Source: Gemmata obscuriglobus | GTDB lineage: Bacteria > Planctomycetota > Planctomycetia > Gemmatales > Gemmataceae | Assembly (NCBI RefSeq): GCF_008065095.1 | Contig: NZ_CP042911.1 | Span: 3,660,001 to 3,692,000, forward strand | DNA: 32,000 bases | Reading direction: 5' to 3' | Part shown: in pieces, positions 94 to 18,458 of the stretch | Layout: each line of letters starts with the position of its first letter | Numbering within the stretch: position 1 is the first letter of the stretch | Position numbers and translations under genes: made by a program | The notes under the pieces: model-generated | Database searches by the model: none | Seen by the model: the letters and a program-made list of their open reading frames with translations, nothing else | What the model was told of the DNA's origin: nothing

Positions 94-110
94 TTTTCGG
101 GAGGTCACGG

Positions 111-1567: not shown

Positions 1568-1578
1568 GGAGCCGCAGC

Positions 1579-1884: not shown

Positions 1885-1886
1885 CC

Positions 1887-1898: not shown

Positions 1899-1901
1899 AT
1901 C

Positions 1902-3290: not shown

Positions 3291-3306
3291 GTGGTCGCGC
3301 GACCAC
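3291..3306. repeat. Palindrome copy 4 (perfect)
   Basis: It starts immediately after TAA at 3288-3290. GAGGG and ATG-3322 follow 15 nt downstream. Confidence 0.95.
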
Positions 3307-3321
3307 TCGCGAGGGCTCCGA

Positions 3322-4755: not shown

Positions 4756-4765
4756 GGATAAATTT

Positions 4766-5110
4766 ATGCTGAAAGTGTTCGAACCGGTAATCACCCCGCA
4801 CCGATTGACTGTGACAAACACCGTGTGGCGGTGGATGGGTAACAGCAACGATCCTCGCGGAACTATCGTAGTAGTTATGTGCGCGTATCCGGACATCGAA
4901 ACCGCTTCGGCGGCGACCGGACCCGACGCCGCCCCTCCCTTAATTGAAGAGCGGTACTCAATCACAGGCAACGACTTCCTGGCGTTGGCAGCCCAACTCG
5001 AATCGCCGACTGGTGCGGGCAAGCCGTACTCGCAGTGCGTCTACGACCACTTCCGCGCGAAAGTGCCGCGGTTCGCGAACGCGGTCGATGTGGATCCGAT
5101 CGGGGGCTGA
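4766..5110 (+). CDS. Small protein downstream of the tail fibre (possible fibre assembly or chaperone protein), hypothetical
   Basis: ATG-4766 lies 10 nt after the fibre stop and is preceded by GAGGA. It has no recognisable motif. It lies in the same visibly lower-GC patch as the fibre 3' end. Confidence 0.5.
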   Translation: MLKVFEPVITPHRLTVTNTVWRWMGNSNDPRGTIVVVMCAYPDIETASAATGPDAAPPLIEERYSITGNDFLALAAQLESPTGAGKPYSQCVYDHFRAKVPRFANAVDVDPIGG

Positions 5111-5113
5111 TTT

Positions 5114-5566
5114 GTGGCACTTGATGTTCTGTTGTTGGAGGATGGTGGCCGACTTCTGCTTGAAGACGGCGGCCGTCTGCTGCTGGAGTACTCTGCTCCG
5201 GATGCGATCCATGGCTGGGTCGCGGCTCCGGGGCAGCGGGTGTGGGTGGCCGGGAGGAGTGCGATGGGGGCTCTCGTCCGCAGCGTGATCGAGAAGACCC
5301 CGGGGGACTCGCTCCGGCTGTTCATGGACTTCGGCGACGTGCCGGAGATCGACGCCGGGGCCAAGATCGCGTCCTGCACCGTGGGCGTGGCGCCGAGCGG
5401 CCCGACGGTCGTAACGCCCGCCACGGTCAACACCGCCGGTTATCTCGCGTCCACGAAGATCGGCGGCGGCGAAACCGGTACGGATTACGAGGTGACGTTC
5501 ACCGCGACGCTCGACGACGCCGACGGGACCGTGATCGCCCGGTCGGGCACGTTGCAGGTGCGGTGA
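5114..5566 (+). CDS. Phage protein with N-terminal LLLEDGGR tandem repeats and a beta-rich C-terminal domain
   Basis: GTG-5114 lies 3 nt after the previous stop. The N-terminus reads VLLLEDGGRLLLEDGGRLLLE. The LLLEDG repeat is a recurrent N-terminal motif in phage tail-region proteins. Confidence 0.6.
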   Translation: MALDVLLLEDGGRLLLEDGGRLLLEYSAPDAIHGWVAAPGQRVWVAGRSAMGALVRSVIEKTPGDSLRLFMDFGDVPEIDAGAKIASCTVGVAPSGPTVVTPATVNTAGYLASTKIGGGETGTDYEVTFTATLDDADGTVIARSGTLQVR

Positions 5567-5582
5567 GTGGTCGCGCGACCAC
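5567..5582. repeat. Palindrome copy 5 (perfect)
   Basis: It starts immediately after TGA at 5564-5566. GGGGGG and ATG-5598 follow 15 nt downstream. Confidence 0.95.
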
Positions 5583-5597
5583 CCGGGGGGATCAGCC

Positions 5598-6131
5598 ATG
5601 ACGTTCGGTCAGGTGCCGGTGCGGATCGAGGATCTCGTCGAGCGGCTGGTGAAGCAGCTCCAGGCGAGGACCGGGTTGCCGGCGGACTGCGTGTTCGAGA
5701 CGCTGGCCGACGACCAGGATCACTGCGAGTTCCCGGCCGCGGACCGGTTCGTGACGGTCACGCCGCAGCGGTTCCAGCGGGTGCCGGGGCTGTGGGACGG
5801 GGCAGGGCGGTGCCTCGAAGGCTGGGACGGGACGTTCCGCGTCGCGTGCCTGTCCCGGTTCGCGTCCGACCAGCAGTTGCGGAGCACCCGCGAGCTGCGG
5901 GACAAGACCCGGTCCGCCCTCGCACTGGTGCTGAAGGTGGTGGACGGGCTGGACGGGTACAAGATGCCGTCCGCGACCGAGCCGACGAAGTCACTGCTCC
6001 GGGAGCCGGTGAAGGGCCTCGACATCGACGTGCGGCCGAAGCGGCTCAAGGTCGGCCCGTGGTCCGTGATCGGCTCGGCCTGGAGCGTCAAGTTCATCCT
6101 CGCGGTTCCGGGCGGGACCGCGGACCCGTGA
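5598..6131 (+). CDS. Hypothetical phage protein
   Basis: 177-aa ORF bracketed by palindrome copies 5 and 6. It has coding-like composition and no recognisable motif. Confidence 0.55.
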   Translation: MTFGQVPVRIEDLVERLVKQLQARTGLPADCVFETLADDQDHCEFPAADRFVTVTPQRFQRVPGLWDGAGRCLEGWDGTFRVACLSRFASDQQLRSTRELRDKTRSALALVLKVVDGLDGYKMPSATEPTKSLLREPVKGLDIDVRPKRLKVGPWSVIGSAWSVKFILAVPGGTADP

Positions 6132-6133
6132 AA

Positions 6134-6149
6134 GTGGTCGCGCGACCAC
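6134..6149. repeat. Palindrome copy 6 (perfect)
   Basis: It lies 2 nt after TGA at 6129-6131 and 7 nt before ATG-6157. Confidence 0.95.
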
Positions 6150-6156
6150 CGCAATC

Positions 6157-8175
6157 ATGCCCGTCACTTACGCCGGTATCGACCTGACGCCGCCCGCCTT
6201 CGCCCCCGCGGAGGTGGAGCGGTGGTGGCACGCCCACCGGGTCACGGAGTTCGAACACCCCGCCTACCTGACCGCGGGGATCGATCACCTTCCGCTGCCG
6301 GCCCCGCCGTCGCGGCACCCGCCCCGCGTGGGCGTGCTCCACTGGCCGAACGGGGCGTCCCGCTGGGCCACGTGCCACCTGCTCGCGACCGGGGGGCAGC
6401 TCGCCCGGTTGCCGACCTCGTCCGCCGCCGCGGGCCTCGTGATCTCGGACGGCACCCGTTCAGTGACGGCCCCGATGTACCGGCTGGCCGCGCGCCCGGT
6501 CTCGCAGCGGGGGGACGGGGCGGAACTGTACCTCGTCACGCTGGTGGACGAGCGGTACTACTGGTGGCAGTCGGGCGACGGGCTCGCCCCCGCGTCGCCG
6601 GCCTCGTGGTCCGCCCTCCTGACCTCCCTGTTCACGGCAGTCGGGGTGGTGGCGAGTGTTGGCTCGATCAACTCGAACTACGGCACCCCGGACGCTACGC
6701 GGTGGGGGGTCGGGTACGCCGCAATCCCGCTCCTCATTGATGCCGCGGCCCGGACGGTCGGGATGCGGGTGGTGCGGTCGCTCGCCGGGGCGGTGTCGGT
6801 CGTGAACTACGCGACCGCGGCGGCTTCTGATTCGTCGCAGTGGGCCACGCACAAGAACGAGGTGATGGCCGGCGGTCGCGAGTTGGTGTCGGAAATCGGG
6901 CGGCAGGTGCCCGCCTCTGTTGGCGTTGTCTTCCCGGGCGATTCACCGAACGTTACGACGAAGACCCTCTCCGGCTTGGCACTGACCGAGTACGGAGCCG
7001 CAACGGGCGTCAGCGGTCGCGTGGGCCGGGTCGGGGCGGACCTCGCCGCGACGGCCGGATCGACGCCCCGGGACAACTACGCCACGCAGGCCGCCACCGA
7101 TTACTACCTCTGGCAACTGTCGCTGACGGACGCGACGCTCCGGAGCGTGCGGGCGTGGACGCCGACCGGGTTGGAGTCGTGCGTCGAGTGGTCCGCCGGC
7201 CGAGACGAACTCCTCACGCGGGTGCTGAGAACGCCACTGAACCAAGGCGAGCAGTGGGGGCAAAAAGTCCCGTCCGGTTCGCTCACCGCCATCAACTCGC
7301 CGACGAACGTCACGGTCAAGAGCGGCGTCACGACCATTTATGCCAGCATCCCGACCGGCCTTCAATGGAACGGGTCGGGAACGGGCGCCGGCGCGGTGCG
7401 GTTGGAGACCATCGCCGCCTCGACGACGCAGCAGGGCACGGTCACGACCGCTGACCAGAGCTTCCGCGGCGTGAAGACGTTCGACGGTGCGCCCCTGGCT
7501 CCGTCCGGGGTGTACGCGGCGGGGAACTCGTTCATCGGCTGTGGCGACGCGTTCTACTCACTCGCCACCCCTCAAACGATGGCGTGGCCGACGCGGCTGG
7601 AACTGGTCGGACCGTACGGCGGGAACGCGTCCGACGTGACGCTGCCCACCACCGCGGACGTTACGGTCATCGGCGGCAGGGTTGCGACGGGGTTGGGAGG
7701 TGCGGTGACCACGCTGTTCAACCTTCCGCGTGAGACGTTGGGGGGAATAACGCCGGTGTGGGCCGACCCGGATTATCCCGGCGGGTCGCCCGACTCGTCC
7801 CACGACACCAGCGACCTGTGGGTCGTTCCCGGATCGCGGCCGGGCCGCGATCCGACGGTAAACCCCGAGACGTTCCCGCGCGCCTCCCCGCAGTACCCCG
7901 GTCGGCTTATGCTGGTCGGCAAGTATGGAACGGTAGAGACGCTACCCGACAACCTCGGCGGGAACGCGACCTTTAACACCTACACCGGCATCAGCCAGTC
8001 GTTCGCGCGGCAGACGTTCGTGAATGGAATCCTGGTCGATAACCAGAACTGGCCGAACAACAACGGCGCGCAAGAAGTGGCGGGGCTGCACTTCTACGAC
8101 GGGGTGTTCAGCTACCAACTAGGACCGGCGATTCTGACCGAACCGGGCGACGGCATCGCCGGAGGGACGTACTAA
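6157..8175 (+). CDS. Large phage structural protein (putative tail or baseplate-associated)
   Basis: 672-aa ORF in the tail-fibre neighbourhood. Its stop overlaps the next start (TAATG at 8173-8177). No specific family is recognised. Confidence 0.6.
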   Translation: MPVTYAGIDLTPPAFAPAEVERWWHAHRVTEFEHPAYLTAGIDHLPLPAPPSRHPPRVGVLHWPNGASRWATCHLLATGGQLARLPTSSAAAGLVISDGTRSVTAPMYRLAARPVSQRGDGAELYLVTLVDERYYWWQSGDGLAPASPASWSALLTSLFTAVGVVASVGSINSNYGTPDATRWGVGYAAIPLLIDAAARTVGMRVVRSLAGAVSVVNYATAAASDSSQWATHKNEVMAGGRELVSEIGRQVPASVGVVFPGDSPNVTTKTLSGLALTEYGAATGVSGRVGRVGADLAATAGSTPRDNYATQAATDYYLWQLSLTDATLRSVRAWTPTGLESCVEWSAGRDELLTRVLRTPLNQGEQWGQKVPSGSLTAINSPTNVTVKSGVTTIYASIPTGLQWNGSGTGAGAVRLETIAASTTQQGTVTTADQSFRGVKTFDGAPLAPSGVYAAGNSFIGCGDAFYSLATPQTMAWPTRLELVGPYGGNASDVTLPTTADVTVIGGRVATGLGGAVTTLFNLPRETLGGITPVWADPDYPGGSPDSSHDTSDLWVVPGSRPGRDPTVNPETFPRASPQYPGRLMLVGKYGTVETLPDNLGGNATFNTYTGISQSFARQTFVNGILVDNQNWPNNNGAQEVAGLHFYDGVFSYQLGPAILTEPGDGIAGGTY

Positions 8176-9176
8176 TGGCCCAACGGACTTTCATCCGCTC
8201 GGTTACCACGTCGGGCAACGCGCCACTCGGGCGGCTTACGGCGATCGTCCCCGATACGCTGCTGATCGGCGATCTACCCGGGACGGGCACGCCCAGCAGC
8301 AGCACTTACCTGCGGGGCGACGGGACGTGGGCCACGCCAAGCGGGAGCGGCACGGTCACCAGTGTGAACCTTACCGCCCCGGCCGCCGGACTCACGGTGT
8401 CGGGCGGACCGATCACATCTTCGGGCAGTATCACGCTGGCGCTCGCCGACGACCTCGCCGCCCTGGAAGCTTTGACCGGCACGAACACCCTCTACTACCG
8501 CAGCGGGGCGTCCACCTGGAGCGCCGTGACGATCGGCAGCGGGTTGTCCTTCACCGGCGGCACCCTGTCCGCGACGGGCGGGGGCGGCGGGTCGGGAACG
8601 GTCACGTCCGTCGGCATCACGGCCCCGGCGGCGGGAATTACCGTCAGCGGCTCACCGGTCACCACCAGCGGCAGCATCACACTCGCCCTGGCGAACGACT
8701 TGGCGGCACTGGAGGCGTTGAGTGGGACGAACACGATCTACTACCGCTCGGGAACCTCGACGTGGTCGCCGGTCACCATCGGTTCGGGCCTGACGTTCAC
8801 CGGCGGGACGCTGAGTGCGTCGGGCGGCGGCCCGACCCCCACCCCGACCTCGGTAGCTCCCGGGTCGTCCATCACCGCAACCGCCAACACCGAGTACATC
8901 ATCGCGGGGGGCATCCCCGCCACCTTGGCGACGATCAAGCTGCCCACGTCCGCCAGCGTCGGCGACTTCTTGACGATCATCGGGTTCGGTGCGGGCAAAT
9001 GGAAACTGACCCAGGATCTGAGCCAGAACATCCACGACGCGGTGCTGGGCGACACGACATCCGGCCCGACCGGGTACGTCCTGGCGACCAACCAGTACGA
9101 CTGCATCACCTTGCGGTGCGCTGCCACGAACGATTGGGTGGTCAGCCACCGGAACGGCGTCCCGACCGTCGCGTGA
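8175..9176 (+). CDS. Second tail fibre-like protein with an internal ~82-aa tandem duplication
   Basis: Contains the YLRGDGTWATP motif common in tail fibres. Two ~82-aa units follow, starting GSGTVTSV(N/G)(L/I)TAPAAG.. and running through ..SITLALA(D/N)DLAALEAL..YYRSG.STWS.VTIGSGL.FTGGTLSA. Confidence 0.8.
   Translation: MAQRTFIRSVTTSGNAPLGRLTAIVPDTLLIGDLPGTGTPSSSTYLRGDGTWATPSGSGTVTSVNLTAPAAGLTVSGGPITSSGSITLALADDLAALEALTGTNTLYYRSGASTWSAVTIGSGLSFTGGTLSATGGGGGSGTVTSVGITAPAAGITVSGSPVTTSGSITLALANDLAALEALSGTNTIYYRSGTSTWSPVTIGSGLTFTGGTLSASGGGPTPTPTSVAPGSSITATANTEYIIAGGIPATLATIKLPTSASVGDFLTIIGFGAGKWKLTQDLSQNIHDAVLGDTTSGPTGYVLATNQYDCITLRCAATNDWVVSHRNGVPTVA
8343..8825 (+). repeat. Intragenic tandem duplication (units about 8343-8588 and 8589-8825)
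   Basis: The two protein units are about 85% identical by eye. The DNA copies differ at many synonymous sites, so the duplication is old. Confidence 0.8.
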
Positions 9177-9185
9177 GACCCCGCC

Positions 9186-9527
9186 ATGAGACGCACACTG
9201 TTCGTCTGCCGCAACGGTTGCCGCCGGCAGTTGCTCCGGGACACGGGTCGCATCCCGGAGCCGCCGGCGTGCCCGAAGTGCGGGCGGCCGATGGTGCGGT
9301 TGAAGAAGAGGGGGCACCCGCGGAAGCTCGGCTTGCAGGCGGCGATCCGCAAACTGCTCCGCTCGTCGGCCGTCCCGGTCAGCACGAGCGACATCGGCTG
9401 GATCGTGTGCCCGGACCGAAAGAGCCCCCGACTGACCGTTTACGGGCTGCTCCGGCGGATGCTGGCCCGCGGCCGGGTGCGGCGAGTGGCGTCGTCGCAC
9501 CAGAGCGGGGCGTTCTGGACGGCGTGA
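9186..9527 (+). CDS. Small zinc-ribbon plus winged-helix-like protein
   Basis: Contains CRNGC..(16 aa)..CPKC, a Cys4 pattern, then the basic helical segment RLTVYGLLRRMLARGRVRRV. Its stop abuts palindrome copy 7. Confidence 0.5.
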   Translation: MRRTLFVCRNGCRRQLLRDTGRIPEPPACPKCGRPMVRLKKRGHPRKLGLQAAIRKLLRSSAVPVSTSDIGWIVCPDRKSPRLTVYGLLRRMLARGRVRRVASSHQSGAFWTA

Positions 9528-9543
9528 GTGGTCGCGCGACCAC
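9528..9543. repeat. Palindrome copy 7 (perfect)
   Basis: It starts immediately after TGA at 9525-9527 and lies 24 nt upstream of ATG-9568. GGTCTACCATAA lies between. Confidence 0.95.
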
Positions 9544-9551
9544 TCGGGGCG

Positions 9552-9563
9552 GGTCTACCATAA
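9552..9563 (+). promoter_or_regulatory. Conserved 12-mer GGTCTACCATAA, copy 2
   Basis: Identical to 1887..1898. TACCAT ends 6 nt before ATG-9568. Confidence 0.4.
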
Positions 9564-9567
9564 GGTA

Positions 9568-9810
9568 ATGGACGACTCGAACGTTTCCTACACCGCCGTC
9601 AGCTCCTCGAACGTGTCAGCGGTCGGCTACGACACCGCGTTCAAGCGGCTCTGGGTGAAGTTCAAGAGCGGCGACGTGTACGCCTACGAGTCGGTCCCGT
9701 CCCACGTCTACCTCGACATGCTGCGGGCCGCGTCCGTCGGCAGCTACCTCTGGCGGGTGGTGCGGGCGAACGGGACCGACTCCCTGTACGCCTACGCGAA
9801 GGTGCGGTAA
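9568..9810 (+). CDS. KTSC domain-containing protein
   Basis: SSNVSAVGYDTAFKRLWVKFKSGDVYAYESVPSHVYLDMLRAASVGSYL matches the KTSC pattern (S.I..vGYD....L.V.F..G.vY.Y..VP..vy..l..A.S.G.Y). Confidence 0.7.
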   Translation: MDDSNVSYTAVSSSNVSAVGYDTAFKRLWVKFKSGDVYAYESVPSHVYLDMLRAASVGSYLWRVVRANGTDSLYAYAKVR

Positions 9811-9817
9811 CCGCCGG

Positions 9818-9833
9818 GTGGTCGCGCGACCAC
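9818..9833. repeat. Palindrome copy 8 (perfect)
   Basis: It lies 7 nt after TAA at 9808-9810. GGAGGG and ATG-9855 follow 21 nt downstream. Confidence 0.95.
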
Positions 9834-9854
9834 CCCCGACCTGGAGGGCCGACG

Positions 9855-9953
9855 ATGATCACTCTGATGCTCACGTTGTTGCTGGCCACCGTCCCGGAAC
9901 GCCCGCACACGGCCCCGGCGACGCCGCCGGCGAAAGTGTCTTCCGAACCTTAA
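9855..9953 (+). CDS. 32-aa hydrophobic peptide (MITLMLTLLLATVPERPHTAPATPPAKVSSEP)
   Basis: It is below the ORF-track size cut-off. It has the same palindrome, GGAGGG, ATG layout as neighbouring genes. It has a TM-like N-terminus and ends 17 nt before the S8 protease start. Confidence 0.35.
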   Translation: MITLMLTLLLATVPERPHTAPATPPAKVSSEP

Positions 9954-9970
9954 ACACACACGGAGCAGTG

Positions 9971-11161
9971 ATGCGATCTTACGCAGCCGCAGTCGCGACC
10001 GCGCTGATTCTGGGGCTTGTTGGTGTGGCTCTGCCGCCGGCCGCCCCCAAGGGTGCGATCCCCGTCGTTGCGGCCCCGGCTCGGGCGGGCGACGACCCGC
10101 CGGATCGGGAGTACAAGCTGCCGCCCAACGAACTGGTTCCGACTGCCGTGCAGGCACTGACCGACGCGGGCGACGTGGCCGACTGGGGGCACGCCGTCGT
10201 CGGTGTGCCCGACGCGTGGAAGGTGACCAAGGGCAAGGGCGCGAAGGTGGCCGTGCTCGACACCGGGTGCGACTCCGGGCACCGCGATTTGAAACCGCAA
10301 ATTGTCGCCGCCCGTGACTTTACGGGTTCGCGGTCGGGCAGTTCCGACGTGAACGGGCACGGCAGTCACTGTGCCGGGATCGTGCTGGCCGCCGAGAACG
10401 CGGTCGGCATGGTGGGCGTCGCGCCCGAGTCACAGTTGATCGTTGGCAAAGTGCTGGGCGATTCGGGGAGCGGTCTGTCCAGCGGAATCGCGGCCGGCAT
10501 CGACTGGGCGGTAGAGCAGGGGGCCGACGTGATCTCCATGAGCCTCGGATCGCCCACCGAAGACGCACGCATCCGGGCGTCGATCGCGGCGGCCCGAGCG
10601 AAGGGCGTGCTGGTGATCGCCGCGGCCGGCAACGAGGGGCCGCGGGAGGGGACGGTGGGGTATCCGGGCGGCACGCCGGGGGTGGTCTGCGTCGCGGCGA
10701 TCGACTCGGCACTCGCCACCGCGTCGTTCAGCAGCCGTGGCAAGCAGGTGCAGGTGGCCGCCCCGGGAGTGAACATCCGGTCGTGTTATCCGGGCGACCG
10801 GTTCGCCACGATGAGCGGCACCAGCATGGCGACCCCGTATGTGGCCGGTTGCGCGGCACTGTACGTGTCCCGATGCAAATCGCTGGGCGTGAAACCGACC
10901 CCGGACGACTTCGCCCAGCGGATCGCTTCCACGAGTAAAGACCTGCCCCCGAGCGGGCGCGACACCGCCACCGGGTTCGGCCTCGTCCAGCCGGCCAAGT
11001 TGCTGCCCACGTCCTCGCCCGTTCCCGATCCGAAGGATCCGACGGTGCCCGTTCCGGTCCCGGTCCCGGTCGGCGACAAGCTGGAACTGTTCCTGCCCGG
11101 GCTGACGGTCGGCGGTCGCCCGGTCAAACGGATCGTCCTCGAACTGGAACCCAAGCCGTGA
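9971..11161 (+). CDS. Secreted subtilisin-like serine protease (peptidase S8)
   Basis: The catalytic triad motifs are VLDTGCD, HGSHCAGIV and GTSMATPYVAG. The N-terminal signal or anchor is MRSYAAAVATALILGLVGVALPPAAP. ATG-9971 is preceded by GGAG. The C-terminal linker is Pro-rich. Confidence 0.92.
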   Translation: MRSYAAAVATALILGLVGVALPPAAPKGAIPVVAAPARAGDDPPDREYKLPPNELVPTAVQALTDAGDVADWGHAVVGVPDAWKVTKGKGAKVAVLDTGCDSGHRDLKPQIVAARDFTGSRSGSSDVNGHGSHCAGIVLAAENAVGMVGVAPESQLIVGKVLGDSGSGLSSGIAAGIDWAVEQGADVISMSLGSPTEDARIRASIAAARAKGVLVIAAAGNEGPREGTVGYPGGTPGVVCVAAIDSALATASFSSRGKQVQVAAPGVNIRSCYPGDRFATMSGTSMATPYVAGCAALYVSRCKSLGVKPTPDDFAQRIASTSKDLPPSGRDTATGFGLVQPAKLLPTSSPVPDPKDPTVPVPVPVPVGDKLELFLPGLTVGGRPVKRIVLELEPKP

Positions 11162-11427
11162 GCAATCACGCACTGTTCGGTGCCGCCTCTGCGTTACCCG
11201 AACAGTTGCTCCTGAAACGGAGACCCGCTGTGAACGAGAAGTACCTAAGCGAACTGAAGGTGTGGGCCATTCGGGCCGCGGTCGTGATCGCTCTGAGCGT
11301 CACGACCGCCCTCATCAACCGCTACCTCGGTGTTCAAGTCGAGGTAGCGCCCCCGCCGGTTCAAGTGGTCGTGCAACCGGCCCCCGGAACCGAGCAGCAA
11401 CCGACCGTAACGGTCACCCGCCCCTGA
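11158..11427 (+). CDS. Small single-pass membrane protein
   Basis: The GTG start overlaps the protease stop (GTGA at 11158-11161). The TM segment is VWAIRAAVVIALSVTTALI and the tail is Pro/Val-rich. Confidence 0.45.
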   Translation: MSNHALFGAASALPEQLLLKRRPAVNEKYLSELKVWAIRAAVVIALSVTTALINRYLGVQVEVAPPPVQVVVQPAPGTEQQPTVTVTRP

Positions 11428-11467
11428 CCTGCCGCCCCTGACCTGCCGCCCCTGACCTGCCGCCCCC
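11418..11467. repeat. 14-bp tandem repeat CCCCTGACCTGCCG, about 3.3 copies
   Basis: Full units lie at 11421-11434, 11435-11448 and 11449-11462. Each carries a TGA (11425, 11439, 11453), and these fall in three different reading frames. Confidence 0.9.
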
Positions 11468-12155: not shown

Positions 12156-12294
12156 CGAACCCGGTGGCAACGCGGTGGCAATGAACTTCCGTGCCGTTTG
12201 GTTGATAGTGAACGAATTTGCAGTATTCGGCTTCGGAAAGCCCTAGTTTTGTAGGGCAAAATGCGTCAGCGTTGTTACCGTGCCGATCTGCTGG

Positions 12295-12341
<47 letters not shown>

Positions 12342-12392: not shown

Positions 12393-12812
12393 TTATTCGC
12401 TGTGCACCTTTGCGTCGCCGCAGAGCTTCTGAAACCGTCTGAACGCTGCTTCCCTGTCCCGCCCCAAATTGATCTGCTTGCCCCCGATTTTCACGTACCA
12501 GCACTGGTTGAACGTGCGGAGCCAAGGCTTTGAAGGGCGCCCGGGCCTTCGGGCGCAGTGGTTTGTCACGTCAGAAGGGTGAAATTCAAACGTTGTGGGC
12601 CACTCGGGCTCGTTCTCTTCGTGCCACTGCCGGTGGAGCTTTGCGCAAAGCCAACGAACCGTCAACCACTTCGCAGGGTAGTAGCTGTCGTGGTGGGCCT
12701 GTCCCCGCCTGCCGCAAATCTGACACGGTTGTCGCAGCAGCGTACCGTTTGCAATTGCCACCGCAACTGCTGAATGGGCCTGACTTTGGAGATGGTACGC
12801 GCGGTTGTCCAT
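12393..12812 (-). CDS. Small HNH-type endonuclease-like protein with a C-terminal extension
   Basis: CQICGRRGQAHHDSYYPAKWLTVRWLCAKLHRQWH fits the C..C....HH......LC..CH...H HNH/zinc pattern. Start taken at ATG-12812 (MDNRAYHL..). The C-terminal segment KPWLRTFNQCWYVKIGGKQINLGRDREAAFRRFQKL resembles integrase N-terminal arm-type domains. Confidence 0.55.
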   Translation of the reverse strand: MDNRAYHLQSQAHSAVAVAIANGTLLRQPCQICGRRGQAHHDSYYPAKWLTVRWLCAKLHRQWHEENEPEWPTTFEFHPSDVTNHCARRPGRPSKPWLRTFNQCWYVKIGGKQINLGRDREAAFRRFQKLCGDAKVHSE

Positions 12813-12947
12813 GCGCTGAACTTGCCTGAGCCTGCACCAAATGTCAACGATTACCTGCACCAAACCCCGGCTGCTCTGGCCGGGGTTACGTCATTTCGGC
12901 ATCGCGTTCAGCCGGGCGAACTCCCCGGCCCAGTGGTGTGATCGCCG

Positions 12948-13160
12948 TCAGGTCGTGGTGAGCACCTCCAGCTGGTCCTCACGGACCTCGACGTACGCTG
13001 GATTTGGCTTCCGTCCGACCCGGACCCGGTAAATCTGCGCACCGCCCGGACCGAGAGGGCCGCGCAATTCAACGATGCGGCCCTTCATGCCGGCCGAGTA
13101 GCGGATTTTGACCCGGTCACCGAGGACCGGGTTCTTGGCGGACTTCTTCGGGGTCGGCAT
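12948..13160 (-). CDS. 70-aa basic protein, translationally coupled to the upstream HEPN gene (candidate partner or antitoxin)
   Basis: ATG-13160 is preceded by AGGAGGG and lies 10 nt after the HEPN TAA. The sequence MPTPKKSAKNPVLGDRVKIRYSAGMKGRIVELRG..IYRVRVGRK has a small SH3/KOW-like beta character. Confidence 0.55.
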   Translation of the reverse strand: MPTPKKSAKNPVLGDRVKIRYSAGMKGRIVELRGPLGPGGAQIYRVRVGRKPNPAYVEVREDQLEVLTTT

Positions 13161-13170
13161 CGCTCCCTCC

Positions 13171-13734
13171 TTACGGCGGCCACGGATCACGCCGCAACTG
13201 TCGCTTTAATCGATTGTACATGACGCGGTCAAGCGATGCCGCCAGCCCGTCACAGGAATTTCGCCAATTCCGGAGGTCGGTGACGGATGGCAGGCCGGTA
13301 GGGGGAACTGTCCCTTGGTGGGCGGCAATATTCCGCCACTCGTTCAACTTAGAGAGGTGTGTAATCCGAGGCGGGTTCGCGATGTCAGCGGCGGCCAAAT
13401 CGAGCGTAAAGCCGAACCGCTCGAAGTCCTTTCGGATGTTGCTGAGGTTGGGGTTACCGTGGTCGAGGGCTCGGTGCGCGGTGAACTGCGATTGGACCAT
13501 CGCCTGAAGCGTGATCCGCACCCGCGACGCAATGACCTGCGCGCACTCAGAATACAGATCGCGACAGAAACCTTGAAAGTGCGCGCTCAGCAGCAATCCG
13601 TACCCCCGCACGTTTTCTTCAAACAGGCGAGGGTTTGGTGGGGAAACGAGCGACGAGGATGCGCACTGGAGATCGACCTCTTGAAGATGGATCATTCGGG
13701 TGAGACGCCACACCCCCAACGAAGTCGACGGCAT
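13171..13734 (-). CDS. HEPN-domain protein (putative RNase; Abi/toxin-like)
   Basis: Canonical Rx4H motif RNIAAH at aa 134-139 (nt 13318-13335) within LNEWRNIAAHQG. Upstream helical block LLLSAHFQGFCRDLYSECA is like the MAE_28990 / RiboL-PSP-type HEPN families. The sequence is all-helical in character. Confidence 0.6.
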   Translation of the reverse strand: MPSTSLGVWRLTRMIHLQEVDLQCASSSLVSPPNPRLFEENVRGYGLLLSAHFQGFCRDLYSECAQVIASRVRITLQAMVQSQFTAHRALDHGNPNLSNIRKDFERFGFTLDLAAADIANPPRITHLSKLNEWRNIAAHQGTVPPTGLPSVTDLRNWRNSCDGLAASLDRVMYNRLKRQLRRDPWPP

Positions 13735-13919
13735 CCCCAGACTCCCGATTTAATTTACGAACGCGCGGAATGAGATGTTATTGCCGCACACCCCGAGACC
13801 GCTTGAGCAGTTCCGGTCGGGACCTCTGCGCAGGACGAACCTTGCGATTTTTGGGGTGCTGGAACTGCCTTTCACTCTCGAGTACGGTCATTCCCGCCAA
13901 GCCCCATCGCGCCGAAGCC

Positions 13920-16625
13920 TTAGCCGGTGGCCCAAGCGTAGTACCCGCGCAGGCCATTCGCGTAACGCAGCGCCGATGTCGGTTTCCAATCCGCCTGCAA
14001 GGCCGCCTTTAGTTTGTCGCCGTACGCCGCGTTACTCAAGTCTTTGTCGGCGGCGAGCGCCTCGATCAGGACACGGATGACCGGCTGTTCCAAGACCGCA
14101 GACTTTGCGGCGTCGATTAGCTTTTTCAGGTCAGCATGCCGCTTGCGCAGAGCGATTCTGCCGTCCGGAAGTCGGTCCCCGAGTTCAAGGGCCAACGCGT
14201 CGTATACCGCGTTGCGAAGGCCGGATTCGACCAGGTCCGATTCGGGTGCGCCTTGCTTCGACGCGAACAGCTTGCCGAGTAGCCTCACGAAGGCTTCCGA
14301 CGTGCCGCTGCCGAGGAATTGTTTCTGCTTCGAGCGATGAGACCGGAGAACGCCCAATTGGCCGCCGCGTGTCCCGTGAGGTCGATAAACGTGAGGCCCA
14401 CGCTCCTCCAAGTGCCCCGCAAAAACAAGCCACCGACGCAGGTTGTTGGCTTGCTGGTGAATGGTGTCCTCCGTGAGCTCGTTGTCGGACGGTTTCGAGC
14501 GCTTGACGATCCCGTCGAGTTCGTTGCTCGGAAGAGGCGTGTCCCGGTCCCACTTTGCTAACTCCCGACATACGACGTGGCGCGAAAACTGACCGTGGAC
14601 GTGCTCGGCGACCCGGATGGGGTCCGTCGCAATTACGTGCGGAGCCAGGATGTACTGGTCATCATCGACCCGATCAACGAGCTGCAGAGCAATCAAGTCG
14701 CTCAGCACGTTGACACAGCCTCGGGTGTTCAGGCCGAGCTCCTGCCCCACCTGCTCGGCCGAAGCCCGCTTGTGTTTTTCGACCGCTTGCAAGGCTTTTA
14801 CCGCGGTCCCCGGGTCACGCTGGAAGGTCCTTGCCCACGGTATCTGTGGCACCCTCTCGTCAGTTAAGTAGTCCCGGAAGATGTCCCAGTAGACGACGTA
14901 GTTGGGACCGCTTCGGACAAGCAGTCGCCGACCCAGAAGGGCGTTGACCGTGTCTCCGCTGAAATGTTCGTTGACCTCGCTCATCAGCACGGGGGACTGG
15001 TCGGCGACGTAATGCAGGCACTTTACTTGTTCGGAAGTAAGGTCGGCCAAATCTTCCCTGAAGAGTTCTTGGATGTCGAGCTCACGCTCAAGTAGCGCGA
15101 ACTGCGAGGTTTTTGCCTGCAACTTCTTCGAGACGTGTACCAGCAACTTCTTCAGCAGCCACGGGTAGCCTTGGCATTGGTCGGTCAGCCGGCCCCGCAA
15201 TGCGGGATTCAACTTGACTCCGATTTCCTTGCCGGCCCGAGTCAAGAGTCGCGCAATATCACCGGTCCCGAAGCGGCGGATAGGGATGTCCAGACGCCTG
15301 TCCCTGAGTTCATGCCAGAGGTGGTACGCTGGGTGCTGCTGGGGGTGTGAAATATCCGTCTTCCACGCAAACCCAAGCACGAGGGGAGTTTGTTTGCTGT
15401 CGAGGTCAAGGCTCAACTCGCGGATGGCGCTGAAGATGCCGTAAAGCTGCTCCTTGGCGAACAGTTCCTCAAACTGATCAAAGATCAGCACGACGACGGC
15501 ATTCCGGTCGCGGAGAGCGTCAAAGGCACTGGAAACGTCCGGAGAGTCGAGTGGGTGGGTCAGGCTGCTGATAGTAAGCGATGACCCTTTAGCGATCAGG
15601 CCGACTTTGGCGGCATCCTGCAGTGCCGTCCGGATCGCCCCGCCAACGAAGGCCAAGTTCGTCGCCGACCGCGTGTCGACGGCGGTAATCGAGCAGTTGC
15701 TTATCCGCCGGCCCTTGCTCGCGAGATCGACCAGCTTGAGCATCAGGCTACTCTTGCCCCATCCGCTCGGACCTTGAACCGCAAAAGTGCGCGTGGTCGT
15801 ATTATCGGCTTGAACAGCGCTGACGAATTGCAGGATCTGGTTCAAAACGTCGTCGCGCCCTACGAAGTCGGCGGGGCGGGCAGGCCGTAGGTCGTCCCAC
15901 GCGTCACCAGCTACGACACGCGCCACTTGGAACCGCGGTGCACTCACCGGGGGCTCCGCCGGGCGCTCTTGAGTTTGAGGCAGGTGTTTGAGCGCGCTAA
16001 ATCGGTCCGCTGCCTTCGCCACGTCGGACGCAGTCTCCTCGGCGACCGGAGTGCCGGTCGCGGCGTTGAACACTGTAAAGTAAGCCGGCACCCCTTGCTC
16101 AAGAATCTCAATCAGCCACCAACGGCCGGCTTGATTGACAACAAGGGTCGCGTCCCCCGCTTCCACGGCGGAGCGGTCCGGGATCGGTGGCGGGGGCTTT
16201 ATAGCGTTCTGGTCGATCAGGATTTCGATGAGTCGTTGCGGCGGATACCACACAAACCGTTTGGACAGGTCGGGATCGTTCTGAATCTCCTGCCACTGGC
16301 CGCGGCCATCTTTGCTCAGGTCACACGTCGAGAACAGCCACCCGGCGTCGGCGCGGCGGATCGCGACGTTTCCGAGCAGTTTAGAAATGGTGTCCGCCGG
16401 AAGTGCGTCACGCTGCGCCTTGCACTCGACGAGAATCGTTCGCGGCTCATCGATTCCCCGCGCGAGGAGATCGATTTCCATGCCCGTGACGCGGATGCGG
16501 TTGTGGACTGCAAAGCGGAGGGGTCTGAGAATGTCGGCGACGAACTGCTCGAAGAACTGCCCCCGCTGGTCGTTCGACCAGTTGCTTGGAACGGAAAGTA
16601 AAAGATGCCGGGCGCCAGCAGCCAT
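13920..16625 (-). CDS. Mrr-like (PD-D/ExK) restriction endonuclease domain fused to a STAND/AAA_16-type P-loop NTPase and a wHTH-rich C-terminal region. Avs-like candidate antiphage protein.
   Basis: N-terminus: FEQFVADIL..GMEIDLLARG..ILVECKA (D52, E67-x-K69) matches the Mrr_cat layout. FVGRDDVLNQILQFV precedes Walker A GPSGWGKSS (nt 15750-15773). Walker B is VVVLIFDQFEELF, the hhhhDQFEE form typical of STAND NTPases. The C-terminal ~380 aa is helical with wHTH-like segments (EQVGQELGLNTRGCVNVLSDLIALQLV). Confidence 0.8.
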   Translation of the reverse strand: MAAGARHLLLSVPSNWSNDQRGQFFEQFVADILRPLRFAVHNRIRVTGMEIDLLARGIDEPRTILVECKAQRDALPADTISKLLGNVAIRRADAGWLFSTCDLSKDGRGQWQEIQNDPDLSKRFVWYPPQRLIEILIDQNAIKPPPPIPDRSAVEAGDATLVVNQAGRWWLIEILEQGVPAYFTVFNAATGTPVAEETASDVAKAADRFSALKHLPQTQERPAEPPVSAPRFQVARVVAGDAWDDLRPARPADFVGRDDVLNQILQFVSAVQADNTTTRTFAVQGPSGWGKSSLMLKLVDLASKGRRISNCSITAVDTRSATNLAFVGGAIRTALQDAAKVGLIAKGSSLTISSLTHPLDSPDVSSAFDALRDRNAVVVLIFDQFEELFAKEQLYGIFSAIRELSLDLDSKQTPLVLGFAWKTDISHPQQHPAYHLWHELRDRRLDIPIRRFGTGDIARLLTRAGKEIGVKLNPALRGRLTDQCQGYPWLLKKLLVHVSKKLQAKTSQFALLERELDIQELFREDLADLTSEQVKCLHYVADQSPVLMSEVNEHFSGDTVNALLGRRLLVRSGPNYVVYWDIFRDYLTDERVPQIPWARTFQRDPGTAVKALQAVEKHKRASAEQVGQELGLNTRGCVNVLSDLIALQLVDRVDDDQYILAPHVIATDPIRVAEHVHGQFSRHVVCRELAKWDRDTPLPSNELDGIVKRSKPSDNELTEDTIHQQANNLRRWLVFAGHLEERGPHVYRPHGTRGGQLGVLRSHRSKQKQFLGSGTSEAFVRLLGKLFASKQGAPESDLVESGLRNAVYDALALELGDRLPDGRIALRKRHADLKKLIDAAKSAVLEQPVIRVLIEALAADKDLSNAAYGDKLKAALQADWKPTSALRYANGLRGYYAWATG

Positions 16626-16707: not shown

Positions 16708-16716
16708 AGACAACTG
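16708..16716. repeat. Target-site duplication AGACAACTG (left)
   Basis: An identical 9-mer lies at 18450-18458, immediately outside the right inverted repeat. Confidence 0.85.
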
Positions 16717-18449
16717 GAGGTCACGCCACGGTTTGCAGTAGGCCTTGCGGTCCTCGGGGCACGGGATAGGAAAAGCGCGGGGCGATTTCGCCGCAACTCT
16801 CGTGCGGGGCGAGTCATGAGCACACCGCGTTTCACGGCCGAGGAACTCGACCGCCTTCGAGCACTGGCGGCGGAGTGGGGCAAAATCGTTTCCAAGCGGG
16901 CGTTCGGGGACGACGGGCCGGGATTGGACGTGGACTTCCGGACGATGGAGCAGATCGCCACCGCGGCGGCACAAGGGCTCACCGAAGGTGCCCTCCAGCA
17001 GATGCTCCACCAGCAGGCCCGGAAGGTGCCCGAACAGGTTCCGTGTCCGGTGTGTGGCGAGCCGTGCCCGACCCGACCACACACCCGCACCCTGGCGGCC
17101 CAAGGGGCCACGGTTCAACAGGCCGAACGGATCGCCCATTGTCCCGCCTGCCGGCGGGACTTTTTCCCCCCTGCGGCTGGCCCTCGGGCTGGATGAGCAC
17201 GGGTACAGTTCCTCGGTCGTTCAACGCATCGTCACGGCCGCCGCCCGGTTCTCCTCGTTCCGGGATGCCGCCGAGGCGGTGCGGATGACCGGGGTCACGA
17301 TCAGCGACAACCAGGTGCGCCGACTGGCTCACGAGGTCGGGCACGAGTTGATCGCGCGGCGCGATCGGAAGGCGGTCGAGCACCGGCGCCGCCAGTTAGA
17401 GCCGCGGACCGCGGTGGTGCCCGTGGCCGTGGTGGTCGAGGTCGATGGGGGGCGCATCCGCACCCGCGCCGCGGGCGCCGGCCCGGGTGTTCACGAGGCC
17501 CAGAACAAGGAGGACAAGGTGGCGTGCCTGGCCACCCTGAGTGGCCCCACGTTCGCCACGGACCCGTGCCCCGAGCCGCCCGAGTCGTTCCGCTGCCCGC
17601 GCCGGGTGCGGCGCCTGGTGCAGCAGATGAAGGGCCCGGCGGGCGAGGTCGCGCCCCCGGAAACCGTGGACGAATCGACGCCCCCGGTGCCGGCCGGGGA
17701 ACCCGAAGGGGCCGAGCGGTGGTCCCCGACGCGGTTGGTGCGGACGTGCGTGGCGAGCCTGGAGGGGAGTACCGCGTTCGGCCCGATGATGGCCGCCGAG
17801 GCCCAGGAGCGGCGCTTCTATGAGGCCCCGCGTCGGGCGTTCGTAGCCGACGGTCAGGCGTACAACTGGACCATCTGGCGCGGGTACTTTGGTGCGTTCG
17901 AGCCGATCGTGGATTTCCTGCACGCGGTGTGTTACGTGTTCTCGTCGGCCGCGGCCGTGAGCCCCGATGAGGCGTCGGGTTGGTCCCAATACGTGGCCTG
18001 GATGCGCGCGTGCTGGCAGGGTCGCGTTGGAGAAGTGCTCACCGAACTGGATCAGTGGCAGGCGCGGCTGGGTGAGCCCCCACCGGGTGAGGCGGCGACG
18101 GCCGAGGAGCGCCGGGACCCGCGCCGGGTGGTGGCGCACGCGCGGACCTACTTGGGGAACAATCGGGATCGCATGGCGTACCCGCGATACCGGCGCAACG
18201 GGCTACCGACGACGAGTAGCTTGGTCGAGTCACTGGTGGGCGAGATCAACGCCCGGGTGAAGAGCACACAGAAGCATTGGACCCGGCCCGACGGTGCCGA
18301 ATCGATCCTGCAACTGCGGGCCGCCGTGCTGAGCCAAGACGACCGGCTCCCACGGTTCTTCGCCGAACGGCCGGGCTCCTCGTTCCGCAAACGAGATACA
18401 CTCTGCCACAAATCAGAGGGTGCCACAGCACAAACCGTGGCGTGACCTC
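16717..18449 (+). mobile_element. Insertion sequence (1733 bp), ISKra4-family-like
   Basis: Perfect 19-bp terminal inverted repeats: GAGGTCACGCCACGGTTTG (16717-16735) and CAAACCGTGGCGTGACCTC (18431-18449). They are flanked by 9-bp direct repeats. There is a single transposase reading frame whose stop lies in the right inverted repeat. Confidence 0.88.
16816..18445 (+). CDS. ISKra4-like transposase, interrupted by a 1-nt frameshift in a C6 run (17166-17171)
   Basis: The N-terminal zinc motifs CPVCG..HCPACRRDFFP are in frame 1. They continue as LRLALGLDEHGYSS.. in frame 2. The C-terminus YLGNNRDRMAYPRYRRNGLPTTSSLVESLVGEINARVK..W.....ILQLRAAVLS is typical of this transposase family. Removing one C restores DFFPLRLALGLD. 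Confidence 0.7.
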
Positions 18450-18458
18450 AGACAACTG
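18450..18458. repeat. Target-site duplication AGACAACTG (right)
   Basis: See 16708..16716. Confidence 0.85.

Follow-up and report, generated by a model that had tools for sequence, protein, structure and literature searches.

The window analyzed here is a 32,000-nucleotide stretch of the Gemmata obscuriglobus genome (contig NZ_CP042911.1, positions 3,660,001 to 3,692,000), and its listing of open reading frames contains three minus-strand genes for proteins of 901, 187 and 70 amino acids, which are already annotated in public records (WP_010036825.1, WP_010036823.1 and WP_010036822.1, respectively). The first of these genes is referred to below as module A, and the HEPN gene together with the small gene that follows it as module B (Table 1). 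The stop codon of the 901-residue gene lies 185 nt from the start of the HEPN gene, and the G+C content of the three genes is 0.59-0.61, as compared with 0.68-0.70 for the flanking genes.

Table 1. Features of the two modules and their surroundings, numbered from the first nucleotide of the window
Feature	Position	Strand	Evidence
tRNA-Arg(ACG)-like 3' fragment (context)	12280..12341	+	Rfam tRNA model, below gathering score
HNH endonuclease gene (context)	12393..12863	-	PHROG 2340 endonuclease, E 2.5e-15
Hairpin CCCCGGC-N7-GCCGGGG then TTTG, possible module B terminator	12861..12885	-	read directly from sequence
Module B gene 2, 70-aa basic SH3/KOW-like beta-barrel (GobsT_31390)	12948..13160	-	synteny, alignment, AF2
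HEPN stop, AGGAGGG ribosome-binding site and 10-nt spacer to small-gene ATG	13161..13173	-	sequence
Module B gene 1, HEPN of RiboL-PSP type, 187 aa, predicted RNase (GobsT_31400)	13171..13734	-	Pfam, homologs
HEPN catalytic motif R134-N-I-A-A-H139	13318..13335	-	R134, N135, H139 invariant
Module A, 901-aa Mrr nuclease-nSTAND1 NTPase-winged-helix array (GobsT_31410)	13920..16625	-	ORF, Pfam, homologs, AF2 model
Module A C-terminal region, residues 505-901, presumed sensor	13923..15113	-	model secondary structure
Module A nSTAND1 P-loop NTPase, residues 250-500	15126..15878	-	Pfam, invariant motifs, Foldseek
Module A Mrr-type PD-(D/E)xK nuclease domain, residues 1-127	16245..16625	-	Pfam, alignment, model
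ISKra4-like IS, 19-nt perfect terminal inverted repeats, 9-bp duplication AGACAACTG	16717..18449	+	repeats, transposase

A sequence-only reading of this region had proposed a three-gene antiphage cassette in a defense hot-spot, and the open reading frames, motifs, spacing, lower G+C content and neighboring insertion sequence (IS) that it described all hold at the sequence level. Its domain calls are also correct, as judged by Pfam, alignments and the structural model: a Mrr-type PD-(D/E)xK nuclease, a STAND NTPase and a winged-helix-rich C-terminus without TPR arrays in the 901-residue protein, a HEPN domain with an RNIAAH motif, and a coupled small basic protein. In profile searches, the nuclease, P-loop and HEPN assignments each score above the Pfam cut-off.

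The IS encodes an ISKra4-like transposase, its inverted repeats (16717-16735 and 18431-18449) are perfect over 19 nt, and the target duplication is found at 16708-16716 and 18450-18458. The IS is separated from the start codon of module A by 83-91 nt on its upstream side, and the fresh insertion may have altered module A expression in this strain. On the opposite side of the trio, the HNH gene was confirmed by its PHROG match, and the tRNA fragment noted beside it stands in part: the anticodon and T arms are present (T-loop GGTTCGACTCC), but the D arm is missing, the Rfam score is sub-threshold (19.5 bits versus 29) and ARAGORN found no tRNA. This fragment is possibly an att remnant at the edge of a phage-like left flank. 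A defense hot-spot is plausible at this locus, given the prophage-like left flank, tRNA-like fragment, HNH gene and IS, but the HEPN pair does not generally lie in such surroundings. Elsewhere, the neighbors of this pair are mostly ordinary metabolic genes, with each neighbor family found in at most 2 of 129 proteins. Defense genes are not enriched among these neighbors, and a search of viral contigs did not detect the pair; both results speak against a defense role.

Linkage of the three genes across genomes

The comparison set consisted of ~150 related loci, 72 with homologs of the 901-residue protein, which span many phyla, and 80 with homologs of the HEPN protein. By tblastn and profile HMM, a HEPN or small-protein gene was found within 8 kb of the 901-residue homologs at none of the 72 loci, and these loci share no conserved neighbor of any kind. 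A gene for the 901-residue STAND protein was likewise absent from all 80 HEPN loci, 50 of which had at least 500 nt of upstream sequence and 18 at least 3 kb. The closest STAND relative (87% identity, in Fimbriiglobus) has no HEPN gene downstream, and a divergent, unrelated gene lies upstream of the closest HEPN relative (76% identity). A small gene of ~70 codons follows the HEPN gene at all loci with enough downstream DNA (72/72).

The proposal that the STAND nuclease, HEPN RNase and small protein constitute one multi-effector defense cassette fails because the 901-residue gene and the HEPN pair are never syntenic in the 72 and 80 loci. The three genes are co-oriented, separated by short gaps (185 and 10 nt) and alike in their low G+C content, and a consensus scan of the coding strand revealed no evident terminator between the 901-residue and HEPN genes, but a single cassette is highly improbable in view of this zero co-occurrence, of closest relatives that each lack the other module, and of modules that are both complete and widespread alone. 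The synteny data instead support the fallback offered in the sequence-only reading, an Avs-like single-gene system beside a HEPN toxin/antitoxin-like pair. Module A is self-sufficient as a single gene, and module B is an obligate two-gene unit. The best explanation is probably that two unrelated, independently mobile modules have become chance neighbors within a Gemmata obscuriglobus island of low G+C content, with module A being an Avs-like nuclease switch and module B a toxin-first RNase toxin/partner pair.

In Corallococcus, Lysobacter and Burkholderia, the module A gene is inserted by itself between housekeeping genes, a few copies of it sit on plasmids and predicted viral contigs, and module B occurs in unrelated contexts at different loci. 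The predominance of metabolic genes around the HEPN pair, together with a conservation of both families that is unusually high for defense genes, could be taken to mean that neither module is a conflict system, and that they have housekeeping or regulatory roles, for example as an RNA-processing enzyme with its cofactor and a DNA-repair ATPase. Such roles seem quite unlikely for families that are patchy and isolated, that turn up across unrelated phyla and surroundings, frequently next to transposases, and that have a G+C content below that of the host in Gemmata obscuriglobus. In addition, the plasmid and viral copies of module A argue against housekeeping functions, as do the Mrr, STAND and HEPN domain types, which are characteristic components of conflict systems (PMC3710099; PMC8195603).

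Module A and its predicted activity

The module A protein has more than 100 full-length homologs of ~900 residues (30-60% identity). Its Pfam matches are to Mrr_cat (residues 22-112; 32.6 bits versus a cut-off of 21, E 1e-7) and nSTAND1 (residues 252-491; 40.2 bits versus 27.1, E 4.3e-10). When 71 homologs were aligned, E50, D52, E67 and K69 of the nuclease were invariant, as were Walker A (S287-G288-x-G290-K291-S292-S293, within GPSGWGKSS at residues 285-293) and Walker B (D383-Q-F-E-E387, the DQFEE of residues 383-387). The invariance of the nuclease residues and both Walker motifs suggests that the protein is catalytically competent. In the AF2 model (pLDDT 90.7, pTM 0.80), the Mrr domain shows an alpha/beta core, and Foldseek matched the ATPase core to those of RuvB, ORC/Cdc6, PAB2304 and Apaf-1. 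The modeled C-terminus contains four helix-helix-helix-strand-strand (winged-helix-like) units at residues ~531-578, 605-660, 669-747 and 776-826, is closed by a four-helix bundle (residues 833-900) and has no TPR repeats. Residues 608-656 match MarR_2 below the cut-off (E 3.4e-4) and residues 602-675 have weak wHTH matches in the PDB, so the winged-helix assignment is backed by sequence for one unit and suggested by topology alone for the other three.

For this module, as for module B, we infer the biochemical activities, a role in defense or addiction and the direction of regulation. By analogy with characterized antiviral STAND proteins, the C-terminal region of module A would bind a ligand, and this would lead to nucleotide-dependent oligomerization that brings the Mrr domains together for DNA cleavage; as a result, the DNA of the invader would be destroyed or the infection would be abortive. 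The founding members of the Mrr family are modification-dependent nucleases, and the effector of module A belongs to this family. It is possible, though rather doubtful, that the protein works in an NTP-dependent manner as a restriction enzyme of the Mrr type (type IV-like) or as a sensor of nucleic acids, in which the winged-helix array would bind foreign or modified DNA directly, as opposed to the recognition of phage proteins by an Avs-type receptor. The name 'restriction endonuclease' in public records and a winged-helix-like C-terminus with one unit that is MarR-like in sequence, in the place of TPR or other repeat sensors, are in line with DNA binding, but the first winged helix is the WHD that STAND modules ordinarily have, contacts between proteins can be made through winged helices too, and three of the four units are those supported by topology alone.

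Module B and its small partner

The 187-residue protein of module B matches HEPN_RiboL-PSP in Pfam (34.1 bits versus a cut-off of 28.4), and R134, N135 and H139 are invariant across 18 homologs, suggesting that it is catalytically competent. The family comprises 1017 homologous clusters, nearly all of 185-188 residues, with 60-76% identity among the 120 matches listed and a mean column identity of 77% in the alignment, and the protein is basic (pI 9.6).

The HEPN stop codon (TAA, 13173-13171) is followed by AGGAGGG at 13171-13165 and the small-gene ATG at 13160, leaving a gap of 10 nt; at related loci where the ATG can be placed, this spacer measures 14-25 nt in most cases, generally with a GGAG. 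A GTG start at 13190, which would yield an 80-residue product, was rejected, as homologs have 70-73 residues and begin at the position equivalent to the ATG. The small protein family has 259 representative clusters and a median pI of 10.35 (10.5 in this member), and the loop E31-L-R-G-P-L-G-P-G-G40 is invariant in the alignment of homologs. No Pfam, PHROG or PADLOC family was found for the protein. Its AF2 model (pLDDT 76.7) is a five-strand barrel, for which Foldseek returned NusG KOW, L24/L21e, R67 DHFR and NdhS, all with E above 0.04. Because the consensus terminator scan missed the G+C-rich hairpin located ~60 nt past the small gene, a module B terminator at this site is something that we infer.

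Tandem-duplicated small proteins exist, and an in-frame HEPN-small fusion occurs in one lineage, which suggests that the small protein acts as a dimer or physical interactor. Module B would be a toxin-first toxin/partner module, in which RNA is cut by a dimer of HEPN, and the small protein, in all probability a dimer as well, binds HEPN stoichiometrically and gates its activity, acting as an antitoxin and possibly as a trigger sensor as well. Two observations run against a toxin/antitoxin assignment: HEPN and its partner are both basic, the partner being a compact, highly conserved barrel, unlike most antitoxins, which are labile and fast-evolving; and a conserved operator was not seen upstream of the HEPN gene.

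A tentative and rather unlikely alternative is that the small protein, instead of inhibiting HEPN, binds RNA or the ribosome and serves as the specificity subunit guiding the HEPN RNase to its substrate, making module B a two-subunit RNase and not a toxin-antitoxin pair. This proposal draws on the likeness to the KOW/SH3 barrels found in NusG and in the ribosomal proteins L24 and L21e, but these fold matches are all weak. The strongly basic character across the family, the very high conservation (Gly/Pro loop included) and the lack of a conserved operator would also fit; the natural in-frame fusion is tolerated, but fused toxin-antitoxin proteins exist as well. Toxin-first order with a tightly placed downstream partner is also typical of RnlAB-type and HigBA-type modules, and an uninhibited, constitutively active HEPN RNase would probably be toxic.

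Comparison with known systems

The three proteins gave nothing meaningful against the PADLOC models, and a defense role is not supported by a known-system model for either module.

Avs4 resembles module A in its layout: one gene without conserved partners encodes one polypeptide, in which an N-terminal Mrr-type PD-(D/E)xK effector precedes a STAND-class NTPase and then a C-terminal region. Module A differs from it in having an NTPase of the nSTAND1 clade and in replacing the TPR-like repeats at the C-terminus with a winged-helix array and helical bundle. Described Avs4 proteins are also much longer than the ~900 residues of module A, no PADLOC model, those for AVAST included, matched module A, and Avs structures were absent from the top 50 Foldseek matches. 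Kaur et al. (2021, PMC8195603) defined the nSTAND1 clade within predicted counter-invader systems, and module A, with its above-threshold nSTAND1 match, has the effector-NTPase-sensor layout predicted for this clade (PMC8195603). A 2026 census of defense-associated STANDs includes Mrr-bearing proteins among its seeds (bioRxiv 10.64898/2026.01.04.697583), and neither the module A protein nor Gemmata was found in those of its supplementary files that were searched. The proteins described in these papers are built differently from module A, with EAD, Death-like or lectin partners, or carry sensors of the TPR type (PMC8195603; bioRxiv 10.64898/2026.01.04.697583).

The pairing of a HEPN protein with a tiny beta-barrel partner is undescribed in any source searched. 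The RiboL-PSP HEPN family has been described as a distant relative of the abortive-infection proteins AbiD and AbiF (PMC3710099), and PF18735 is, according to a review, the HEPN domain of PD-T4-2, PD-T4-5, PD-T7-3 and ApeA (PMC10952713). The PADLOC models of these systems did not match the 187-residue HEPN even at E 0.1, Pfam detected no Abi_2 in it, and, unlike module B, none of their descriptions includes an SH3-like small partner. HepT-MntA resembles module B in having two genes and a small Rx4-6H HEPN RNase, but in module B the HEPN gene comes first and the partner is no minimal nucleotidyltransferase (no Pfam match, other fold). RnlA-RnlB and LsoA-LsoB share with module B the toxin-first order, a HEPN RNase and a small protein encoded downstream that, by analogy, should bind the HEPN domain; module B differs in that its toxin is a 187-residue single-domain RiboL-PSP HEPN, whereas RnlA is a large three-domain protein, and in that its partner is an SH3/KOW-like barrel without detectable relation to RnlB.

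Synteny and setting of the three genes

The adjacency of a STAND gene and a HEPN gene in Gemmata is not a conserved feature. Relatives of the 901-aa STAND protein were compared at 72 loci of species-representative genomes (Acidobacteriota, Deinococcus, Bacillota, Pseudomonadota, Chloroflexota and others), each taken with flanks of up to 8 kb per side where the contig allows; none of these loci has a HEPN relative (tblastn, and a profile HMM at E values up to 1) or a relative of the 70-aa small protein (profile HMM). Clustering of flanking open reading frames in these loci also identified no neighbour common to more than 10 of the 72, apart from antisense frames within the gene itself. From the HEPN side, a STAND match was found in none of 80 loci with HEPN relatives, all of them on metagenome contigs, of which 50 have at least 500 nt of upstream DNA, 34 at least 1 kb and 18 at least 3 kb. 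The small gene lies directly downstream of the HEPN gene in 72 of these 80 loci, the other eight have no more than 102 nt of sequence beyond the HEPN match, and linkage is therefore complete (72/72) among the loci with enough downstream sequence. The spacer between the two genes is mostly 14–25 nt where an ATG start can be placed, usually with GGAG ahead of it. The closest HEPN relative (76% identity) is preceded by a divergent, unrelated gene, and there is no HEPN gene near the closest STAND relative (87% identity, Fimbriiglobus), which is truncated.

Because of this synteny across both sets of loci, we consider the HEPN and small genes to be one unit (module B) and the 901-aa gene to be a separate unit (module A). 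The sequence-only reading had proposed one three-gene antiphage system and suggested a search for co-occurrence of all three genes in other genomes; this search found no such locus (0/72 and 0/80), so the proposal is not borne out. Its fallback, an Avs-like single gene beside a HEPN toxin/antitoxin-like pair, is supported by the HEPN–small gene linkage and by the separate occurrence of the STAND gene. The false lead of a unitary ‘DNase-STAND plus HEPN’ multi-effector system, which does not exist, thereby gives way to two cleaner targets. A link between small genes and STAND genes was also considered on the basis of weak tblastn matches (E 0.003) just after STAND-like genes in two Desulfobacterales loci (L067, L068), and was rejected as chance because the small-family profile HMM finds no match there even at E 10.

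The window proteins are exact matches of GobsT_31410 (named ‘restriction endonuclease’ in RefSeq), GobsT_31400 and GobsT_31390, and the open reading frames first placed by eye proved exact. As had been claimed, 185 nt separate the stop codon of the 901-aa gene from the HEPN start, and the ATG of the small gene is 10 nt past the HEPN stop, with an AGGAGGG that overlaps this TAA codon. The 70-aa reading of the small protein is right, since its homologues are 70–73 aa long and start at the position equivalent to this ATG.

The surroundings fit the island of low G+C content that had been described for this genome, with a phage-like left flank, a tRNA-like fragment, an HNH gene and an insertion sequence (IS). 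G+C is 0.59–0.61 in the HNH, HEPN and 901-aa genes versus 0.68–0.70 in flanking genes, which puts numbers to a difference earlier judged by eye. The tRNA-like fragment may be an att remnant at which the phage-like flank ends; its att core occurs only once within the window, so direct repeats do not delimit the island. The inverted repeats of the IS and its 9-bp target duplication, AGACAACTG, are perfect, which argues for a recent insertion, and the element, 83–91 nt upstream of the start codon of the 901-aa gene, may affect the promoter of this gene. The IS transposase is split over two overlapping frames, so it is either produced by a programmed frameshift or encoded by a disrupted gene. Scans of the window for promoter and terminator consensus sequences were uninformative in this high-G+C planctomycete.

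Features of the window and predicted parts of the 901-aa protein (nt, window positions; aa, residues of the 901-aa protein)
Feature	Location	Strand	Remarks
Phage-like block	nt 1–11161	+	left of the region
Thymidylate synthase	nt 485–1567	+	in phage-like block
Head-decoration-like protein	nt 3283–4755	+	in phage-like block
Gly/Thr/Ser-rich repeat protein	nt 8175–9176	+	in phage-like block; resembles a fibre
Subtilisin-like protease	nt 9818–11161	+	in phage-like block; PHROG protease, E 2e-77
Perfect 14-nt tandem repeat, CCGCCCCTGACCTG	nt 11418–11466		about 3.5 copies; intergenic/short-ORF sequence between protease gene and tRNA-like fragment
tRNA-Arg(ACG)-like 3′ fragment	nt 12280–12341	+	Rfam tRNA 19.5 bits, below threshold; anticodon arm, T arm and acceptor 3′ strand; D arm absent
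HNH endonuclease gene	nt 12393–12863		
Small gene (module B)	nt 12948–13160	−	70 aa; GobsT_31390
HEPN gene (module B)	nt 13171–13734	−	187 aa; GobsT_31400
STAND gene (module A)	nt 13920–16625	−	901 aa; GobsT_31410, WP_010036825.1
ISKra4-like element	nt 16717–18449		nt 16708–18458 with target duplications; 19-nt inverted repeats at 16717–16735 and 18431–18449
IS transposase frames	nt about 16817–17196 and 16988–18445		
Alpha/beta nuclease domain	aa 1–127		AlphaFold2 model
Small three-strand beta-sheet plus helices	aa 129–215 (nt 16245–15981)		confident model, no Pfam match; between Mrr domain and NTPase
Flexible linker	aa about 216–250		AlphaFold2 model
NTPase	aa 250–500		AlphaFold2 model
Four helix-helix-helix-strand-strand units	aa about 531–578, 605–660, 669–747, 776–826		AlphaFold2 model
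Four-helix bundle	aa 833–900		AlphaFold2 model

The HEPN protein and its small partner

The HEPN assignment and its canonical motif, both made by eye, are upheld by a Pfam HEPN_RiboL-PSP match (34.1 bits against a cut-off of 28.4) and by the invariance of R134, N135 and H139 (R134-N-x-x-x-H139, of the Rx4-6H type); a second invariant block is L48-L-S-A-H-F-Q-G55. The family comprises 1017 protein clusters, mostly from soil and peat metagenomes, and the best 120 of these 1017 are nearly all 185–188 aa long and 60–76% identical, with a mean column identity of 77% in an alignment of 18 sequences. The linkage of the HEPN and SH3-like pair is strict and its conservation very high; the pair is common in environmental bacteria and was not found in viral contigs. 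In 19 long loci its neighbours are heterogeneous and mostly metabolic, with no Pfam or PADLOC family in more than two of 129 neighbouring proteins, and the upstream regions of 56 HEPN loci have only a ribosome-binding site in common, with no conserved operator.

The small family includes 259 representative clusters at E values up to 1e-3, with invariant G14, D15, V17, V30, E31, G34-P-L-G-P38, G40, Y44, E58 and D62-Q-L64, and has no match in Pfam, NCBIfam, PHROGs or PADLOC; when solved structures were searched by sequence, none of the three window proteins had a significant relative. The small protein is modelled as a five-stranded barrel (pLDDT 76.7) whose best fold matches are KOW/SH3-type barrels (NusG, ribosomal L24 and L21e, R67 dihydrofolate reductase and NdhS), and since all of these have E values above 0.04 they indicate a fold class only. 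Both proteins are basic, with pI values of 9.6 for the HEPN protein and 10.5 for its partner (family medians 9.25 and 10.35). Pfam detects no known DNA-binding domain in the small protein; a basic SH3-like barrel could nonetheless bind nucleic acid.

Strict linkage, tight spacing, duplicated partners and a natural fusion together suggest that the HEPN and small proteins associate physically. The fusion (P0122) is an in-frame protein of 262 aa, the closest relative of the Gemmata HEPN protein, in which a junction 1 nt shorter (CCGCCG to CCCCG) has removed the stop codon; it represents a single lineage, with identical DNA in two samples and sequencing runs (L163, 1021–1809; L164, 867–1655). The small protein is duplicated in tandem within one polypeptide in P0241, P0242, P0243 and P0249, or is encoded twice, by two genes in immediate succession, in L122, L127 and L129, which hints that the partner works as a dimer. 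Module B is probably a toxin-first pair: the HEPN protein would act as a dimeric RNase, and the small barrel protein, itself a dimer, would restrain it. An alternative, that the small protein is a targeting cofactor of the HEPN protein and not its inhibitor, is kept alive by the KOW-like fold of a partner that is both basic and highly conserved, and we regard it as rather unlikely.

Multi-copy occurrence is typical of toxin-antitoxin-like modules. One 59-kb metagenome contig (Ga0116219_10000231) carries two separate HEPN–small gene pairs (L100, L114), and another locus (L110) has a second small-gene copy about 2 kb downstream of its first pair. The Mycobacteroides abscessus plasmid NC_021278.1 (L166, 2854–4250) encodes a HEPN homologue that is distant and of full length (profile E 3e-23, motif RNAVVH), and a 263-aa protein of unknown family follows it after 15 nt in place of the 70-aa partner; this may be a case of partner exchange. 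An apparent likeness of the N-terminus of this 263-aa protein to the small protein received no support from HMM, Pfam or hhalign comparisons. Three long ‘fusions’ among the small-protein matches (P0289, P0337, P0356) appear to stem from frameshifts or from chimeric gene calls, and they were left out of the evidence.

The 901-aa STAND protein

The assignment of an Mrr-type PD-(D/E)xK nuclease and a STAND NTPase to the 901-aa protein stood up to profile searches, with Pfam matches above curated cut-offs to Mrr_cat (residues 22–112, 32.6 bits against 21) and nSTAND1 (residues 252–491, 40.2 bits against 27.1). In an alignment of 71 full-length homologues, E50, D52, E67 and K69 are invariant, as are the Walker A residues S287, G288, G290, K291, S292 and S293 (GxxGxGKSS) and the Walker B motif D383-QFE-E387 (DQFEE).

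An AlphaFold2 model built from 71 sequences (pLDDT 90.7, pTM 0.80) contains a core fold of nucleotide-binding, helical and winged-helix domains, and its C-terminal ~400 aa consist of winged-helix-like units and a helical bundle, with no repeat array. The first of the four units in the model is the expected winged-helix domain (WHD) of a STAND core, and sequence support for a winged helix exists for the second unit only (a MarR_2 match that is below cut-off, at E 3.4e-4, and weak matches in the PDB). Foldseek searches of the PDB matched the ATPase core only (RuvB, ORC/Cdc6, the archaeal ATPase PAB2304 and Apaf-1; E 1e-6 to 5e-5), and no Avs structure was among the top 50 matches. Taken from the model, the support for one unit and the Foldseek results, the earlier suggestion of a wHTH-rich C-terminus in place of TPR arrays appears sound at the level of predicted topology, and the protein exemplifies a short STAND layout that lacks repeat sensors.

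By analogy to Avs proteins, recognition of a ligand by the C-terminal region would license nucleotide-dependent oligomerisation, and this would in turn activate the Mrr nuclease. Because of the predicted winged-helix array, a nucleic-acid ligand is a serious alternative to a phage protein. Asking what a winged-helix-based STAND protein senses is practical, since full-length relatives at about 28–30% identity are present in tractable organisms, among them Acinetobacter baumannii, Burkholderia vietnamiensis, Paenibacillus and Listeria.

In Corallococcus, Lysobacter, Burkholderia and on a Burkholderia plasmid, the module A gene stands alone, inserted between housekeeping or hypothetical genes, and there it sometimes adjoins transposase remnants or toxin-antitoxin genes. 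Of its relatives, several are found on plasmids and plasmid-collection records (A. baumannii included), and two are on predicted viral contigs. The closest relative, from the Fimbriiglobus MAG (L005, 8001–9509), stops after about residue 496, ahead of a Y-family polymerase-like gene in opposite orientation, and has therefore probably decayed.

A joint reading of the two modules can be put forward tentatively, at a level of confidence well short of even. Module B could be a previously unrecognised, abundant two-gene RNase family, in which a RiboL-PSP-type HEPN protein is under the control of its own KOW/SH3-like partner of 70 aa. The invariant Gly/Pro loop of this partner (E31–G40) would plug or position the HEPN active site, and the partner could couple the RNase to a ribosome, RNA or phage cue; module A, in parallel, could use its winged-helix array to sense nucleic acid, not phage proteins, as a STAND receptor. 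If so, the small partner would be a new type of antitoxin or sensor fold.

Relationship to known systems

Module A has an Mrr effector and an effector–NTPase–sensor logic in common with Avs4-type proteins and, like Avs types 1–5, carries a defence-type N-terminal effector (Mrr_cat, with its D, E and K residues invariant), but the TPR-like C-terminal sensor of these types is absent from its model. PADLOC, a check proposed in the sequence-only reading, gave no meaningful match for any of the three proteins; in PADLOC-DB 2.0 the 901-aa protein had no Avs/AVAST match and only weak partial ones, to its Mrr part (PDC-S02) and P-loop (SspC). Both Walker motifs of the protein are intact; it falls in the nSTAND1 clade, whose members are predicted to act in counter-invader systems (PMC8195603). 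Its predicted Mrr_cat PD-(D/E)xK catalytic domain is also that of Mrr-type (type IV) restriction endonucleases. A 2026 census describes at least 90 defence-associated STAND families and the use of Mrr-bearing seeds, and the supplementary text searched does not contain the Gemmata accession (bioRxiv 10.64898/2026.01.04.697583).

For module B, the RiboL-PSP family is described in a published table as distantly related to AbiD/AbiF, with members that occur in fusion with L-PSP or share an operon with ParB (PMC3710099); neither arrangement applies to this 187-aa single-domain protein, whose only conserved neighbour is the 70-aa gene. PF18735 is listed in a review for PD-T4-2, PD-T4-5, PD-T7-3 and ApeA (PMC10952713), and the PADLOC models of these four systems did not match the HEPN protein. 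Literature searches found no description of either module, and for the partner fold of module B the sources searched describe no counterpart in other HEPN modules.

As in type II toxin-antitoxin systems, module B consists of two small, adjacent, co-directional genes that are invariably linked, have a patchy distribution and lie in unrelated contexts among heterogeneous neighbours. Its partner is not RnlB-like and, unlike that of HEPN/MNT (type VII) systems, has no nucleotidyltransferase match and is a predicted five-strand beta-barrel. Nothing in this analysis overturns current ideas; the HEPN–barrel pair is a clean, abundant module that has a predicted HEPN RNase and a two-gene logic in common with RnlAB and HepT-MntA.
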